DNA of 62,302 nucleotides, filler included, from Rhabdomonas costata (GCA_019059605.1; 33 parts of 33 records of this genome joined end to end with filler, not necessarily neighbours in it); one strand, 5' to 3'; shown: positions 36,450-48,849, numbered from the whole stretch's first letter. Made by a program: numbers and translations. Notes: generated from the letters alone by a model not told the origin.

Positions 36450-37691
36450 CGAGCTCAAGGAGCCCATCCTGGCCTGCCCCAACGACCCCGACGATGTCAA
36501 GCTGCTGTCTGATGTCAAGGGCACGAAGATCGACGAGGTCTGGGGCCCTCTCCTTCTCCGCATCCTTTCCTCGCCTTCCTCGCTGGGTGGGGGGGGAGTG
36601 CTTGCATCGTTTCTTTCTACGATTGACGCACAATCACACCCATCTACCCATCTACCCATTTGTGAATCCAGCCAGTTGGCATTGTTATTGGCTTCTCTTG
36701 CAACGATTTTTGGGTATGTCCCGATTTGCTCGAGGTGTGCCTGCGTGTGTGCCTTCTGTGTGGGCTTTCTGCCCTTCCCTTCCGTTCCCTCACCACCACA
36801 CAGGTGTTCATTGGATCGTGCATGACCAACATCGGGCACTTCCGCGCCGTGGCCAATGTGCTGGCGCAGCAGAAGGGTCCCCTGCCGACCCGCCTGTTGG
36901 TGGCTCCCCCCACGAAGATGGACGCTGAGCAGCTCAAGGCGGAGGGATACTTCGGGATGTTCGGCGACGCCTCGGCCCGGATGGAGATGCCTGGGTGCTC
37001 CCTGTGCATGGTAGCTCCCGCTCCCCTGGCCCGTACTCACAGCTTCAATTTGCGCTCACATGCACAAAAACAGGCACGTTTTAGTCCTTTCCGCGGAGGA
37101 AAGACCCTCGACGACCAGGAACGTTATCAGAAGTTCTCTTCAGAGTTTGCTCGGGCAGCATCCGTTCGTCTGGCCTCTTCTACGTGGCTTCAAACTTGAA
37201 GTAAGTCGCAAAAGGCCTGAACCTTGAGCAGTCGACTGTGTGTATGTGTGTGTGTGTGTGCAGAACAAGCAGCACAAGGACACGCCACAGCACACCGCGC
37301 AAAGGCGCCATGTGTGTGTGGCTGTGACGGGCTCATTGGCGGGTCCCTTTGAGAAGGTGTTCGAACTGAACTGGACGGGACGGGGCCATCATCGTGGACT
37401 GGAATTGGCCGGTTTTTTCGCAACATATAAGGGGGGGTACGTGCTGCTGTGAACTAAGCGGATTACAAAACCCATTTCACTTCAGTGGGCGATGTACGTA
37501 CAAGAAAACACTGGTCCCTCTTTCTCTCCCGGTAACAGGGCAACCAAGCCCGAGTGGCGCCCAAGGCCACCGTGGTGTCGACGTCGACCAGGAACTTCCC
37601 CAACCGTCTGGGTGACGGCTCCAACGTCTACCTCTCCTCCGCTGAGCTCGCTGCGGTGGCCGCGATCACTGGCAAGCTGCCCACTCCAGAG
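36450..37691 (+). CDS. acnB: Bacterial-type aconitate hydratase B, C-terminal part, 3 exons
   Basis: Exons 36450-36537 ([29 protein letters not shown]), 36804-37010 ([15 protein letters not shown]...PPTKMD..QL..EGY...MPGCSLCM) and 37539-37691 (GNQARV...[34 protein letters not shown]). Confidence 0.96.
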
Positions 37692-37933: not shown

Positions 37934-39776
37934 TACGCAAACAAGCAGACACCCACACACCCACATGCGTTCGTGCACAAGGTGGGGGCGATTTTTTCTG
38001 GGAGGGGGGATCCTGAGGTCAACTTCGAGGCCAGGCGTGTGCGACCCTCCGCCGGATATGGGCTTATCGGGCCCCAAATCGTTCACGGCACTCTCTGTGT
38101 CTAACTGCGCCGCGTCGTTCACTCTTGTCTCGCAAGGATCGCCACCCCCTTGAGGGCGACGACGAACACGCGGGACCTAGGGGCTAGGGGACCACAATTT
38201 GTCGCATATCCATACACACGTACAGAGAGACTTTCCACGAGGCAGGGCACATCCACACTCACACACGGCACAAGGCGCGAGGATACCGGCAAAAACCGGC
38301 AAAATAAAAACAAGTGATCCCCACCACACAGTGGAGTACTGAACAAAAGAGCGTAACTAGGGCAATGCAGACAGAATTCGGGGGGTTGACCATCACTTAG
38401 AGGTCCGCAGGACGCCATCACAGGGCAGCGCTCCCGGTGCGGTGACGCACCCGCAGGCCTCGAGGAGCACCTCCGAGGGACCGTCCGAGGGCAGCACAGA
38501 GAGAACCTCCCGGAACCACTGCTGCGCCCGTCGGGGGTCGCACTCGATGTACAGCTCGATGCCCTTTTTGGTGCGAAGGCATCAGTAAACTACCAAAAGC
38601 CGAACATCCCCCGGCCTGGTCCGGTCCACAGTTGCACATACAACTCAGATATCCGGTGCCCGGCAATGCAGAAATCAGGAAATCAAAAAGCGGAACGAGC
38701 GGCAGGAGGGGACCCCGAAAAATTAAGTGGCGGGAAACACTTCACTGTTGGCCTGCTGAGCCCAAGGAAACCATTCACTTGCTGGCACTGGCAACTCGTT
38801 TCGTGGATTATCATACTGTTACAGTTTTTAAGGTTGTTTCCTTCTTCGTCTTGCGCTTTAAGGTTGTTGTCTTTCCTATACCCCTCACCCCCCCCCCTCC
38901 TTTCCCACCAAGTCCATGTCTGCTACCTCTTCTTTCTCTTGTCTTCTTAACCCAAGTGTTGACTTCCCGCTCCGCAAGGTCCAATGTAAGTATTGGTTGT
39001 ATTCCTTTTAAGGGGCTCATTGTTAACGCCTTTCGTGCCTGCTTTCCAAATTCCTTTATGCCGTATTTTTGCTCCCTCTGACGTACCAACACCTGAACAA
39101 TGCTGTGCGATGCGTCCAGAACTTTTGTTCTAATAAGGCTGATAAAGTGCATGCATCGTTAGTGATACTTTTTCATTTCGCTCTTCCTTTCGGGGGGGTG
39201 TATTTCTTGGTCGTCAAGTGAATGTGCGTTAAGGCTCCCATCTTCCGAACTCACTGGAAATCACCGCAATTGTGAAGAGTGTTCTGTCCTAAACGCACTA
39301 AAAGAAAAAGCCGCATTATAACAGTGCACGTCGAAAATAAATGAGAGCAACTGGAGGCGTTTCGCTTCAAAAGAAGTCGAAGAAGGAACGCCCCTGTATT
39401 CATTTTTTATTTTAAGGTGAGAAGGTCGGGAAGGGGTTTCCGAGAGCCTTCCATTGACCATTCCATCAATGAAGCACGAAAAGTTCGTATGTCCGTATAC
39501 GCAGAGCAGCTGGACACCTTCTCATATAGCTCGGCCGCTCGAAGCAACATGTCACGGGGGATCCAAGTCCAGTGGAACAGAAGGACGTTTCCCGACCCCA
39601 CACACAGTCAGTCAGTCAGTCCACAGTGGTACCCAACACCCNNNNNNNNNNNNNNNNNNNNNNNNNNNNNNNNNNNNNNNNNNNNTTAATTAATTAANNN
39701 NNNNNNNNNNNNNNNNNNNNNNNNNNNNNNNNNNNNNNNNNCCCTCCCCTGCATATTTGAATATTTTTTTACGCAG

Positions 39777-41144
39777 GTACTTCGTGGGCCTGGATCAGCA
39801 GCACCTCAGCCCCTTTCAGTCGAACGTGTACATGGCCGAGGAGCAGATTCTGTGCTTCGTATGGAAGGGGCCTTTTCGAGTTGGTTTTTTTTTTTGCATT
39901 TTTCTGAATTTTGGGTTATTTTGTTGAATTATAATGCTGTTTTGTGGCCAGCGTTATCTTCCATTACAGGAGCTGCTGGCGAGAAAAGGAACCGCCTACT
40001 CTCTGAGGTGGGTCCTAAGCCCTTTGCCCCACTTCCCCCGCCCGCCCTGTACACTTACTTTGTTTCTCTGCTGAGTTCTCAATCCGTGAACCTAAAAAAC
40101 CTGTGACATTCTTTGGCGTGCACTCGACACAACGGCGTCATCGTTACCCTCGTACTAGAATTGTGTGTTCGCGGATCCGAATATACCGGTAGCTTCGCGA
40201 GCACCCGCGCATGATCTCAAGGTAAGACCTGCAGTGTGTTGCTTAAAAAAAACAAGATTTGTTCTCCTTCCCACACCAATGTGCTACATAAGCAAGCACA
40301 TGCCCTTGCATGTTCTCAACGAATTTCGAGATTCCAAGAGGACAAAAGCAAAGGCTCCTCGGAGAAGGGACTGAGGGTTCGCCAACCCGCTTGCAGATAC
40401 CTTCCTGGGGCTGTTGCTGTGGCGGGCTGCCCCACGGCACTCCCTGAGTTGCTGGAGCAGCGGAAGCAGTGGTCCAACGGCAGCTTGTTTGCCTTATGTA
40501 TGTGGCTTCTCTCAGGACCTCCTTTGTGCTTTTTTTATGGTGCTCACGACAGTTCAACACAAGATTGTGGCAGGTTGTCCGAGGTTGAAGACAGTGCAGC
40601 CACTAGATACAATGAAGAAAGGCCAGAGAGGTGGCATAACAAGGTCTTTTATGTCGCTGACTTCCACTTTCCATCCAGATCTTTCGAGTTGCGCAGTAGC
40701 AATTCCACACACTCAACACTCAGACACTCAGCATCCTGTTCTTGCGATTCTTGTTTTTTGTAGTCATAGCATCGGCATCTCTTTTCTGGTTCCGCAGAAT
40801 GCCCTTCAGAGTGATGGTGACCTTTAAGCCTGAGGTGGCCTGCTGCGCGATTAAACCCGAGATATTCCTAGATGAGAAATTTCTTTTCTGGTGACGTTTC
40901 CGCGCACACTTCTGGATCAGACTTCGTGCAGGGCACACCATTCCGCCTGTGACCCTGTGACCCTCCCCTTTCCGGTCCCACAGTGTACGCCTTATTCCAC
41001 ACGAAGCAGTTCTTCACCAGCGGAATGACCCTACCTTGCAAGGTCGTTATCGCCGCGCAGATCGTCCTCACCGCCGTGCGCACTGTGCTGGGGCAGCTTG
41101 CCATGGGGCTGTACTTCGCATGGTTTGAGGCCACCGTGGTCCAG
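39777..41144 (+). CDS. Chitin-synthase-like GT2 protein with divergent catalytic motifs (4 exons, partial)
   Basis: Exons 39777-39858 (SPFQSNVYMAEEQILCF), 39970-40007 (ELLARKGTAYSLR), 40397-40497 (YLPGAVAVAGCPTALPELLEQRKQWSNGSLFAL) and 40984-41144 (LYALFH...). These are colinear with CHS NMYLAEDRILCFEL...YV..A.A.TDVP...QRRRWLNGSFFA. Confidence 0.85.
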
Positions 41145-41366
41145 GTCTTCATCCCTTTTCCTCGCTTCCCCCGATTCGATCAGCATGAGAAGGAACGTGC
41201 TTTTTGTCCCTTTGTCCCTTTGCCCAGTGCACCTTTGGAAAGGCTTTCTTTGGAACGCTCCGTCTCATTACGGGGCTCGCTTGTCAGCAAGCCAACCTGT
41301 GGAGCAGCCCATCTCTACGGCTGCACACTGCAAAATCCTCCTAGAAGGCCGCAAACCTTGGTTTTC

Positions 41367-41528
41367 TTGGTTTTCTAAAAGAGAACAAAGTGTAGGCTAG
41401 CACACCGTCCGCATGGATGCACGGTGGTTCGCCAGCAAACGCTTGAGTGTGCGTTTGTGTGTGTGTGTGTGCATCTCTGTGCTCAGACGGTGTGCTAGCC
41501 TACACTTTGTTCTCTTTTAGAAAACCAA
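41367..41528. repeat. 43-bp perfect inverted repeat at contig end (probable fold-back artefact)
   Basis: 41367-41409 is the reverse complement of 41486-41528. Confidence 0.9.
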
Positions 41529-42202
41529 CAAANNNNNNNNNNNNNNNNNNNNNNNNNNNNNNNNNNNNNNNNNNNNTTAATTAATTAANNNNNNNNNNNN
41601 NNNNNNNNNNNNNNNNNNNNNNNNNNNNNNNNTTGTGTTTGTTTATGAATTATCTTTTAAGCTTTTTTTTTTGGGGGGGGGGCGTTTGTCCAGTTCTGTC
41701 ATTTTCTTGATTCCTTGGGCCTGCTGTTTCTCGACACTGCACTAAAAGGAGAATAGCAGCTTCTCTTTTTTCTGCTTTCGTATATAAGTATTGCCATCCA
41801 GAAAGAAGGCAACTTGCACAACGTACACATGCAAAACTTGGGCTGCTGGGTTGTCTGCGCTGATGCATATGACATATTAAAAAAATTGACGTCTTCGGTG
41901 ACCTTAGTGTTTCGTTTTTTATCTCTCTTTTTTCTCGTCTTTGCGCTCTCAGCCTGAGAACATTCTTCTCGGTGTGTTTTGCGCTGCGCATTTTTTATTC
42001 ATTGCTTTTTGTTTACTTGAGTTGATTCCTGTCCTTTCATCAGCGAGCATCATTGAAAGGAAGCTTTTTTAAAATTCCACCTCGCACTTGCCATCATCGA
42101 CCATCCTTGATTCTTATTGACGTTCTGAGCAACGGGCAGGAGTTGCCTTCGGAATCGCTCATTCATGTGGGGAAGAATGTGCGTACGCACGCTCTTGTCC
42201 AG

Positions 42203-43294
42203 ATAAGCAGGACCACGCCAAACTGACGGACTTCGGGGTCAGCAGTGTGACAGGCGCCCCGGACATCCTCAAGACAACAAAGGGATCTCCGGCATACATG
42301 GTGCACCCCCACCACCCCTGTGTGTGGGGCCATTCAGTGAATTCCCTCCCCCGACCTTTGGCTTGCTCAGCTTTTTTTTTAAGTTTGTGCTATGATCTTT
42401 TTGGTTTCCTGTTTACCATTGACTGCAGCTGAGGAAGCCGTGCTCAGAGGTAATTTGTTCTCTGTGAAATGTGTTGCGTTTGGCCCACGTCCTGAAGAAG
42501 AGCCCTTTTCTTTGCTTTTGAGAAGAGAGAGTCTCGCACCTCATACGCCCATACGGTCGTAAAGAAAAGGATCCGCATGAATTATGGGTTTGCCGTATCC
42601 GTGCTCAGCAGTGGGGTTTATAAGACAAGTATTAAAGGGCAAGCGCATGTCTTGTGCTTCCTAATCATTGCACACCCACACACATATCAACGGCGCAGTG
42701 GGTATGTTCTTTGGCACAGCCCCCTGAGGAGTTTGACCCGGAGCAACTTGTTGTGGGCGAGAAGGCAGACGTTTGGGCCTTTGGAGTGACGGTATGCGTG
42801 GGGGGAATAGGAGGATTTTACGGGGGAATCGGAAACAGGGGCTCAAAGCCTTCAGTTTTCAGTGGCTTTCAAGGTGTAGCGCAACGTGCTGTGGTTTTCC
42901 GATGGTAGTCGGGAGACTTCTAATGGACTTCTCTTACTTCTATTGTTATTGCATAATGAAGGCTCGCTGAGCATCTGCAGAAGGTGCCCTTGCTTGGTTA
43001 CCTTCGTCATTTTAGCAGCTCACGCCATTCCTGAGTGAGAAGCAAATCGATCGCCAATAGTGACCGTTAGCACCAAAAAAAATAGAAACCCAACAAACCT
43101 TTGAATTGGTTTTCAGATCCCGATTTTCTGGTGTTGCTTCCTCTTCCGGGTGGTACTTTTAGGTGTACGTCATGGCGTTCGGGAAGCTTCCGTTCTGGGC
43201 CAGCGAGCTGTCCGAGCTGGGCGAGAAGGTAAGGTTTCAGGCTGTGGAGTACCCCCCTGACGCGGACAGTCAACTTGTCGATCTCTTGACACAT
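42203..43294 (+). CDS. Ser/Thr protein kinase, CAMKK/GRIK-like (3 exons, partial)
   Basis: Exons 42203-42300 (AKLTDFGVS...TKGSPAYM), 42720-42791 (PPEE..GEKADVWAFGVT) and 43163-43294 (VYVMAFGKLPF...LVDLL). Confidence 0.88.
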
Positions 43295-46200: not shown

Positions 46201-48441
46201 ACTACGTAAACCCACTGTGTATGAGGTGATGTTGGTGGCTGATGTTGGTACCGATGCTGTCAACCCACCTGGTGGTCATGGCGTGGTAACCTGGTAGTGG
46301 TGATGCCTGCCTACCGCCGGTGTTAGCCCTGAGGGTAGAAGTGCCAAAGTGGAGGTCGCCGAGACCGACATGCAGGGTACCAACACCTCAGTTGCGACAC
46401 TCAACGCATCAACCCACTGGCTGATGTTGGTAGGTGTCACCTTACCCGTACGGGATGATGACTCAGACGGTGGCCGCTGCGTTACTCCCTCTGATGTCAC
46501 TCCCTACCACCTAAAAGTTCGGCTTGGTAATTTTCGGGAGTGTCTTTTTGAAGTTGAGCAGAAAAATCCGGTCTTTTCTACTTGCGGTCGCCCCGTTTGG
46601 GTTGGGGTCTGTGCTGAGGGTATTTTCCATCCCGTGTACCCAAGCCCTTGGTAACGAGACTTTGCAACACGAAAACCTGTGCGAAAATCCCGAAACGATG
46701 CTAAATGGCGGTGAACACTTTTTAATGGGTGACCCACTCCACTACAATGGCTATACCTTACCCTACACTACACTAGAACCCTAGAAACGGTGCAACAACA
46801 CACGCTAAGCACAGCCACAAGTACAGAAGGCCTACAGACAAAAAATGCCACGTTACACCAAATAATACCATCATTACACCAATCAATATCAGTATTCTTG
46901 ACGCTACGTAACCACTTCCCCGTTTGTGAAAGGACCGGTATGAGAAACACGCTAACACTCTTACAATACCAAATGTCTTAAAATCACCATGTACGTGTAA
47001 AATGACCACCAAGAAAACATAAAAAGTGGCAATAAAAACACGTGCCTTTTGACAACTTTAGCCGTTTCTACCTGCCCTATCCTGTTTGATTGAAATATGA
47101 GATAAAAATATTCTTGATAACCCCTTCAATTCCGAGCCTAGTGAGAGGAAAAATTACATTAAAAAATTACATTCAACAAGAGAGCAGATGGTTCACCACA
47201 CCAACNNNNNNNNNNNNNNNNNNNNNNNNNNNNNNNNNNNNNNNNNNNNTTAATTAATTAANNNNNNNNNNNNNNNNNNNNNNNNNNNNNNNNNNNNNNN
47301 NNNNNTTGTGGGGGGCACAAACCAAACCGGTGACATGGACGCTGTTCTTACGGCAATGCAATCAGGCAAACAGATCTGGAACTTGCCTGCTCTCTCATGG
47401 TGACTGACCGAGGATGTGTGAGTAGGTTGTAAAAAAACTAGCAAAGCCTGGACCACAATTTCATTGGTGCGCAAAAGTCCTGCTGTTGAAGGGGTCACAT
47501 TGAGCAGCAGTAAAATCCAATAACCAACAAATAACGTAAAGCAATGACTTGGGAGATGATCCCAAGTCATCTCTTTATTGAATACCACTGACATCAAACA
47601 AGTTATCCGATATATTCGACAAGCTACACCGCAGCGGTGCTCGCCGCAGCCCAAAAACGAGAAACTCGGCCGAATGCAAAATTAAGATTAAACCTAGGTG
47701 GCTAGAAAATTGAATGACATCAACAGCCAAGACCAACGTAAGGACCGCAATTGTCTCCCACACTCTCGCCAAGAAAGAAGGCACAGTAGCACACAATGGC
47801 ATTGGGATCGGCCTTCTCGGTAAGCAAAGTGGTGAAAACCCTGGTGCAGATGGCAGACGCCGCTTCACCCTGAGCAGGTGGAATGAAAATAACAAATATA
47901 CTTGATGCTGGTCGACCGTCAAAACCCAACAGTTGCGAATGTCCGAGCCGGAACAAGCGAGCCTGGGAATACCGAGTCGCAGAGGCACCCGCAGTCAACG
48001 GCCAACAACGCCCACCCCACCTCTTGTAGCCGAACATATGTTTGCGTGTACACCGGGCAAGCACAAACATCCAGATCAATCCTGCAGCTGACTCCCAGTC
48101 TGGCATTTCATTGATCGTTTTGATATGAATTTCTCTTTTGGGGGGTGATTTGAACCATAATATGAAAAACCACAGGTCCTGACGAGCGCTAACGGTGGAA
48201 CATGAAAGAGCGCAAGTCCAGAGGACGTCCGTGATTGTGAGGACAATATCCCGGACAAGTGATCTTTCACACTGCGAAGTCTTGCCATAGGTCTGAACAG
48301 TCGCAGATGGGTACTGCAACGCCAAGCGAGTCAAGCGAGGAAAACCAGGAAAAAGGGATGCGATCCGGATTTATTGCTCGATGCCAGGATGCGGTTAATG
48401 GCGAGAGAGTGACTCTGGACAGGGAGGACGCTGACCACAAC

Positions 48442-48849
48442 CTCGCCAAGTTTATCAGCCGAGTACATCAGCGGGGTCTTGTTGTCTTTGTCCTTGGCAT
48501 TGATGTCGACCTTGCACTGGATCAGCTGCAGGGAGACGTCCGCGTAGTTGCGCTGAATGGCGTGCATCAGGGGCGTCTTTCCATCCTTGTCGGCCAGGTC
48601 AGGGTTGGCCTTCAGCTCCACGATCTTCATGGCGACCTCGGGGAGCCCCTTCTCAATCGCGCATATCACAGGGGTCTTGCCATCCACGCCGTCGGTGGTA
48701 TCCAGGTTCACGGGCTTGTCCAGCAGCTTGGCCACCTCCACTACGTCACCCTTCTTGATTTGCCCCAGGAGGGCCACCCCATTGTTCGCTTGCAGCTTCG
48801 CTGTCTCCGCTGAAGCGATCTCCTCCGGCACCTCGGCAAGCTCGTACAC
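48442..48849 (-). CDS. Ankyrin-repeat protein exon
   Basis: Exon bounded by tcgtAG and GTtgtg, with three D.DGKTP-type ankyrin repeats (DGKTPVICAI, DKDGKTPLMHAI, DKDNKTPLMYSA). Confidence 0.9.

Follow-up and report, generated by a model that had tools for sequence, protein, structure and literature searches.

The chitin-synthase-like locus of Rhabdomonas costata described here is best explained as a native euglenid gene, seen here as an internal piece, that descends from a division-1-type chitin synthase and was kept under selection as a pseudoenzyme after catalysis had been lost, a reading to which we give a probability of about 0.4. It occupies four exons between positions 39777 and 41144 of the window, by which we mean the whole stretch of DNA that was analysed, 62,302 bases in length. 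The product is probably a relative of the chitin synthases that is either non-catalytic or altered in its chemistry. Because the two defining features that were tested, the EDR motif and the Arg of QxxRW, are both replaced, the predicted protein should be called a homologue only and not a chitin synthase in the enzymatic sense.

Locus architecture and coding signals

The context is not the one presumed in the initial annotation. The window consists of 33 unrelated contigs of 1,766–1,800 bp (~1.79 kb), arranged in order of length with N44-TTAATTAATTAA-N44 spacers between them, and sequence readings that span a spacer are meaningless. The chitin-synthase-like locus lies entirely within one 1,791-bp contig, 39742-41532, with artificial spacers on either side. 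As a result of this layout the gene is truncated at both ends and no neighbours are legible. When the remaining 32 contigs of the window were scanned by motif and by tblastn, no second chitin-synthase piece was found, and Rfam returned no matches over the whole window.

All features of the locus are on the plus strand. The contig begins with the 3' end of an upstream intron (39742-39776), which consists of a pyrimidine tract and a CAG acceptor in the context TATTTTTTTACGCAG. Exon 1 (39777-39858; 1 nt and 27 codons, GC3 0.89) encodes the EDR-motif segment, YFVGLDQQHLSPFQSNVYMAEEQILCF, and is followed by intron 1 (39859-39969; 111 nt, GT..AG, 35% GC). Exon 2 (39970-40007; 12 codons and 2 nt) encodes ELLARKGTAYSL plus a split Arg codon and precedes intron 2 (40008-40396; 389 nt, GT..AG, 51% GC). 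The QxxRW interfacial-helix segment, YLPGAVAVAGCPTALPELLEQRKQWSNGSLFAL, is encoded by exon 3 (40397-40497; 1 nt, 33 codons and 1 nt), which intron 3 (40498-40983; 486 nt, GT..AG, 49% GC) separates from exon 4 (40984-41144; 2 nt and 53 codons), a predicted hydrophobic segment past the QxxRW helix. The remainder, 41145-41532, lies after a GTCTTC donor and is presumably intron to the contig end. The acceptor is CAG in all four cases, and the donors of exons 1 to 4 are GTATGG, GTGGGT, GTATGT, and GTCTTC in that order. When joined, the four exons of the visible fragment give 127 codons without a stop, and all eight of the splice dinucleotides visible in it are canonical, in agreement with the initial annotation, which had described four in-frame exons with intact GT-AG sites.

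The exon 4 call rests on the open frame, the AG and GT sites, a GC3 of 0.83, and the hydrophobic stretch. Its 19-residue Kyte-Doolittle mean peaks at 1.76 over residues 20-38, and the segment is probably membrane-spanning. Searches of the protein database, the PDB, metagenomes, and the protein atlas gave no sequence match for this exon. The peptide is reminiscent of the Y-x-x-x-H / S-G stretch found after NGSFFA in chitin synthases of fungi.

The fragment has the codon bias typical of coding DNA in this genome. GC3 over the 127 codons is 0.795 (101/127), compared to a GC content of 0.35, 0.51, and 0.49 in the three introns (binomial p of 1.3e-12 against 0.49). Comparators within the window gave similar values, with a GC3 of 0.87 for the exons of an aconitase gene and of 0.78 for an ankyrin-repeat frame.

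Examination of composition showed that the contig, at 51% GC, ranks 12 of 33 by trinucleotide distance from the window mean, and the intron style of the chitin-synthase-like gene is that of the aconitase gene in the window. On the basis of composition and intron style the contig is treated as native euglenid DNA. Contamination as its source was rejected on composition, namely the trinucleotide rank and GC content.

Two repeats were observed in the contig. A 30-nt direct repeat, 80% identical between its copies, links the start of intron 2 (40011-40040) with the beginning of the stretch that follows exon 4 (41144-41173); it may support the intron reading of 41145 onward or may be a chance likeness of pyrimidine-rich sequence. 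A 47-nt inverted repeat with arms at 41363-41409 and 41486-41532 is 98% complementary, and its second arm stops exactly at the contig end. This repeat may be an amplification or assembly hairpin.

Other contigs of the window contain recognizable genes. A bacterial-type (AcnB-like) aconitase, identified by a Pfam match, is encoded on the plus strand at 36451-37691 by three GT-AG exons within the contig at 35956-37750. Its three exons together share 147 of 149 residues with EukProt RCo003529 of Rhabdomonas costata, which identifies the source as this species or a very close relative and agrees with the euglenozoan origin supposed in the initial annotation; the two differences, N for K and L for W, are both in the exon at 36804-37010 and could reflect allelic variation, a paralogue, or an error of assembly. 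For the middle exon RCo003529 was the best of 8,000 scored proteins at 96% identity, the next being 83% and most others 71-75%. A 172-residue open frame on the minus strand (48334-48849) contains ankyrin repeats (Ank_2, E 7.7e-22). A 521-residue open frame on the plus strand (230-1792) nearly fills its contig and matches no Pfam family; it may represent a repeat element or a gene confined to this lineage. A further plus-strand open frame at about 42200-42300, reading ...AKLTDFGVS...GSPAYM..., contains a putative protein-kinase activation segment.

Homology to chitin synthases and the state of the functional residues

Exons 1 and 3 were used as separate phmmer queries against 177,635 distinct PDB sequences with a threshold of E≤10. 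All six matches to exon 3 are chitin synthases (E 0.25-0.57), comprising three sequence variants of Phytophthora sojae Chs1, two variants of yeast Chs1, and Candida albicans Chs2. Both matches to exon 1 are yeast Chs1 (E 0.84-0.89). Taken separately, these single-exon E-values are marginal. At the same threshold no cellulose or hyaluronan synthase chain in the PDB was matched by either exon.

The alignments place the two exons on the same yeast Chs1 chain in a collinear and gapless manner. Residues 7-27 of exon 1 correspond to yeast Chs1 702-722 (10/21 identical) and exon 3 corresponds to yeast Chs1 741-767 (12/27 identical). Exon 2, together with the split Arg codon and the five residues that open exon 3, exactly fills the intervening gap of 18 residues in yeast Chs1. 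The best PDB match of exon 3 is P. sojae Chs1 515-546, with 15 of 32 residues identical, and this exon also aligns to C. albicans Chs2 626-654. Since the PDB matches are to chitin synthases only, fall on one chain, and are collinear with an exact 18-residue spacing, we regard the homology of exons 1-3 to the division-1-type chitin synthases (processive GT2) as established at the level of sequence. The assignment in the initial annotation of the locus as a chitin-synthase (GT2) homologue is borne out by these data. Pfam searches with the single exons (27-53 residues) and with read-through frames matched no family, including the chitin-synthase models. In the protein atlas, exon 3 retrieved sub-threshold GT2/chitin-synthase fragments (0.77-0.85), which served as a lead only and not as evidence.

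Chitin synthases carry further motifs, with TMYNE, DGR, KASKL, DVGT/DAG, QxFEY, and VLPGA located upstream of the region described here and SWG downstream. The positions of the upstream motifs from TMYNE to VLPGA and of the downstream SWG fall outside the 1,791-bp contig. The fragment would span the EDR strand, the loop with the Mg2+-ligand Asp, and the QxxRW interfacial helix, followed by a predicted hydrophobic helix.

Within this span three motifs differ from those of the solved enzymes. The exon 1 alignment places EEQ (39838-39846) at the position of EDR (yeast Chs1 E716, D717, and R718), and the exon 3 alignment places AG (40422-40427) at the position of TD (T744 and D745) and QRKQW (40458-40472) at the position of QRRRW or QRKRW. 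Translation together with the alignments thus reproduces the motif changes that had been proposed for the locus. In terms of yeast Chs1, the window protein carries the replacements D717E, R718Q, T744A, D745G, and R759Q. The Asp base and acceptor-site Arg that define the EDR motif are therefore both substituted, as is the Mg2+-coordinating Asp of the TD pair. At the QxxRW motif the phosphate-site Arg (yeast R759, P. sojae R538) is Gln, and the Q and W of the motif are retained.

The roles of these residues come from a yeast Chs1 study (PMC10409773), which names D717 as the putative catalytic base and assigns R718 to the GlcNAc acceptor site; D745 together with E457 coordinates the Mg2+ on the α-phosphate, and Q756 and R759 hold the phosphate. 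In the same text the R718L variant gave no complementation, and D745R and R759A only moderately impaired complementation in a growth assay (PMC10409773), so that two of the four changes would not singly be lethal to activity. For P. sojae Chs1, PMC9556331 describes Arg538 as touching the donor diphosphate in all ligand-bound states. This active oomycete enzyme has a natural QRKRW motif at residues 535-539 (PMC9556331). Of the QRRRW to QRKQW change put forward by the initial annotation, the Lys at the third position is therefore harmless, being shared with an active enzyme, and the R to Q change at the fourth position is the real one. A review (PMC12653383) gives the same residue roles for EDR and QxxRW. 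NodC and yeast Chs2 are inactivated by mutation of the EDR Asp or Glu, or by an Arg to Ala change in QxxRW, according to PMC4132801, in keeping with the requirement for the Asp base and the QxxRW Arg that had been stated for this family. The case is stronger than the one originally made for the locus, as two further residues have been lost, the acceptor Arg (yeast R718) and the Asp that serves as Mg2+ ligand (D745).

Residues retained relative to yeast Chs1 are E716, P747, P751, E752, Q756, R757, W760, N762, G763, S764, F766, and A767, which includes the NGS-FA stretch in exon 3. Of the 16 exon 3 positions that are identical in the oomycete and yeast enzymes, nine are kept and seven are changed, and the divergence of the aligned sequence is consequently general and extends beyond the catalytic residues.

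Proposed loss of catalysis and retention by selection, and alternative explanations

In the model that we favor, the gene would descend from a division-1-type chitin synthase (processive GT2) whose base (Asp to Glu), acceptor Arg (to Gln), Mg2+-ligand Asp (to Gly), and phosphate Arg (to Gln) have all been replaced. Because all four contacts are replaced, canonical polymerization of GlcNAc from UDP-GlcNAc is most likely impossible for the predicted protein. Selection would then have retained the gene after catalysis was lost, turning it into a pseudoenzyme of chitin-synthase descent. The Trp that stacks on the acceptor and the Gln are kept, and so would be the channel-side residues and the fold. 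Chitin synthases form dimers. A plausible role for the protein would be as a sugar-chain-binding or channel subunit, or as a non-catalytic partner in a dimer. A pseudoenzyme is a homologue of an enzyme that has its catalytic residues replaced and is nevertheless retained by selection, and the predicted protein fits the first part of this description.

We infer retention under selection from the open frame, splice sites, and codon bias, which outlived the residue losses. To this we added a drift model (Jukes-Cantor, no indels, equal rates) that starts from the present sequence and covers divergences of 0.05 to 0.4. The model scored the joint occurrence of changes at 4 or more of the eight annotated functional residues, 127 codons remaining open, and 16 splice bases remaining intact. 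The joint probability was at most 2.5e-3 at any divergence between 0.05 and 0.4, a result that is crude and post hoc. It suggests that selection continued to act on the frame as the catalytic residues disappeared. The word "maintained", as applied to this gene by the initial annotation, appears to be partly supported: the open frame, splice sites, GC3, and drift model speak for it, and the absence of the peptides from database proteins of at least 71 residues speaks against it.

That absence comes from a word-indexed protein search in which a 40-residue piece containing exon 3 gave 32 candidates among proteins of at least 71 residues, and exon 4 gave three candidates among proteins of at least 94 residues; none of the candidates scored. 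The same database includes an R. costata protein that is 96% identical to the aconitase exon. Since the R. costata transcriptome is 75% BUSCO-complete (PMC8219788) and proteins shorter than 71-94 residues lie outside the search, the absence is weak evidence. Scanning metagenomes yielded 353 pattern matches for exon 4 and 597 for exon 3 with 15 read-through residues, among which no relative was confirmed. A phmmer search with exon 3 against 1.84 billion representative proteins gave two matches, both spurious tandem-repeat proteins with summed scores. A close relative or orthologue with these motifs was thus found neither in the metagenomes nor among the 1.84 billion representatives, and a known GT2 subfamily sharing the motifs, which would have offered a different account of them, was found neither in the protein database nor among these representatives.

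The literature was surveyed in parallel. The word "chitin" has no occurrence in the available text of the R. costata paper (PMC8219788) and one supplementary file, and none in a comparative euglenozoan paper. Among the publications retrieved on Euglena, Euglenozoa, and Discoba no title or abstract pairs the taxon with chitin synthase, and for Euglena gracilis none pairs it with GT2 carbohydrate-active enzymes. Where euglenids are mentioned in the chitin-synthase papers that were checked, the mention is confined to the reference list or to a passage that deals with RuBisCO and is unrelated. According to a cell-wall review, euglenids possess a protein pellicle, and some have mucopolysaccharide loricas.

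Several of these observations would also be expected of a pseudogene or decaying relic, that is, a silent former chitin-synthase gene or a partial duplicate that is under relaxed selection and has as yet acquired no stop. Such a relic would be in keeping with the missing database peptides, the lack of any relative with the same motifs, the silence on chitin in the consulted text of the R. costata paper and supplement, and the change of seven of the 16 positions in exon 3 that are invariant between oomycete and yeast, and only a fragment of 127 codons is visible, beyond which the gene may carry stops or frameshifts. However, the fragment bears no mark of a pseudogene: there is no stop in the 127 codons, the eight splice dinucleotides are intact, and the aligned span is gapless against the solved enzymes. 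Its GC3 of 0.80 equals that of the recognizable coding exons of the window, with the introns at 0.35-0.51 GC, and the drift probability is low even before indels are counted. The peptides' absence from the database counts for little on the grounds of completeness and protein length given above. We therefore consider a relic rather unlikely. Errors are still less attractive as the source of the changes. The assembly consists of contigs that are very short, the hairpin-like inverted repeat runs to the last base of this one, and the 2/149 residues at which the aconitase exons differ from the database protein point to some error or polymorphism. Yet the six replacements (D, R, T, D, and R, with the harmless R to K) exceed this discrepancy rate of ~1%, and the inverted repeat is more than 200 nt downstream of exon 4. 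Foreign DNA from a contaminating eukaryote is opposed by the composition typical of the window and by an intron style and GC3 like those of the aconitase gene. Amplification or assembly errors appearing as substitutions, or a foreign origin, are thus very improbable.

The evidence for selection, from frame, splice sites, GC3, and the drift model, would apply equally to an active GT2 with altered chemistry, in which Glu serves as the base and the donor is held by different residues, such as the Lys of QRKQW, or through a new metal geometry. Such an enzyme might make another linkage or use another nucleotide sugar, possibly in the formation of mucilage or of a cyst envelope. In its favor, an Asp to Glu change preserves the carboxylate, E716, E752, Q756, W760, and the NGS-FA stretch are retained, and the D745R and R759A variants of yeast Chs1 are only moderately impaired in vivo (PMC10409773). 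Nevertheless, the base, acceptor, metal, and phosphate contacts are all four lost together, and the EDR Asp or QxxRW Arg mutants of NodC and yeast Chs2 are inactive (PMC4132801). Among solved processive GT2 enzymes chitin synthases alone were matched, and neither the protein database nor the 1.84 billion representatives contained a family with these motifs. To our knowledge, the Asp and the Arg are retained in every processive GT2 enzyme characterized so far, which also counts against an active enzyme. On balance an active GT2 of altered chemistry seems unlikely, and a selected pseudoenzyme remains the reading that we prefer.

Significance and comparison with known systems

The processive GT2 synthases of chitin, cellulose, and hyaluronan are defined by the Asp base and the QxxRW Arg. 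If the gene was selected after losing both, it would represent a non-catalytic or chemically different use of the GT2 fold and a natural experiment on the contacts that are needed for catalysis. We know of no described chitin-synthase pseudoenzyme and of no chitin wall in euglenids. The chitin-synthase family itself is already known. We tentatively propose that the locus is the first chitin-synthase-derived pseudoenzyme or processive GT2 of new chemistry, and the first chitin-synthase-family gene to be described in Euglenozoa. If true, the presence of such a gene in Euglenozoa would bear on the age and spread of the family in eukaryotes. Were it a silent relic, it would still testify to a chitin pathway that euglenids have lost, but would be of minor interest.

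Pseudoenzymes in general are enzyme homologues that selection has kept; if the window gene encodes one, it would be expected to be expressed and to be selected across species. They have lost catalytic residues and kept fold-level sequence, an open frame, and codon bias, and this combination is also seen in the window. The closest structural reference is S. cerevisiae chitin synthase 1 (PDB 7xs6; division 1, class I), to which exons 1 and 3 align with identical spacing and no gaps. It differs in that D717, R718, T744, D745, and R759 are replaced in the window protein, of which 127 residues are known here. P. sojae chitin synthase 1 (PDB 7wjm) has the third-position Lys of QRKRW in common with the window protein; in contrast, its Arg538 is Gln, and its T523 and D524 are Ala and Gly, in the window protein. 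Rhizobial NodC and yeast Chs2 share the same EDR and QxxRW elements, for which PMC4132801 proposes an inverting mechanism that uses an Asp as the base. These two enzymes lose their activity when the Asp, the Glu, or the Arg is mutated (PMC4132801), and the window sequence carries changes of this kind naturally.
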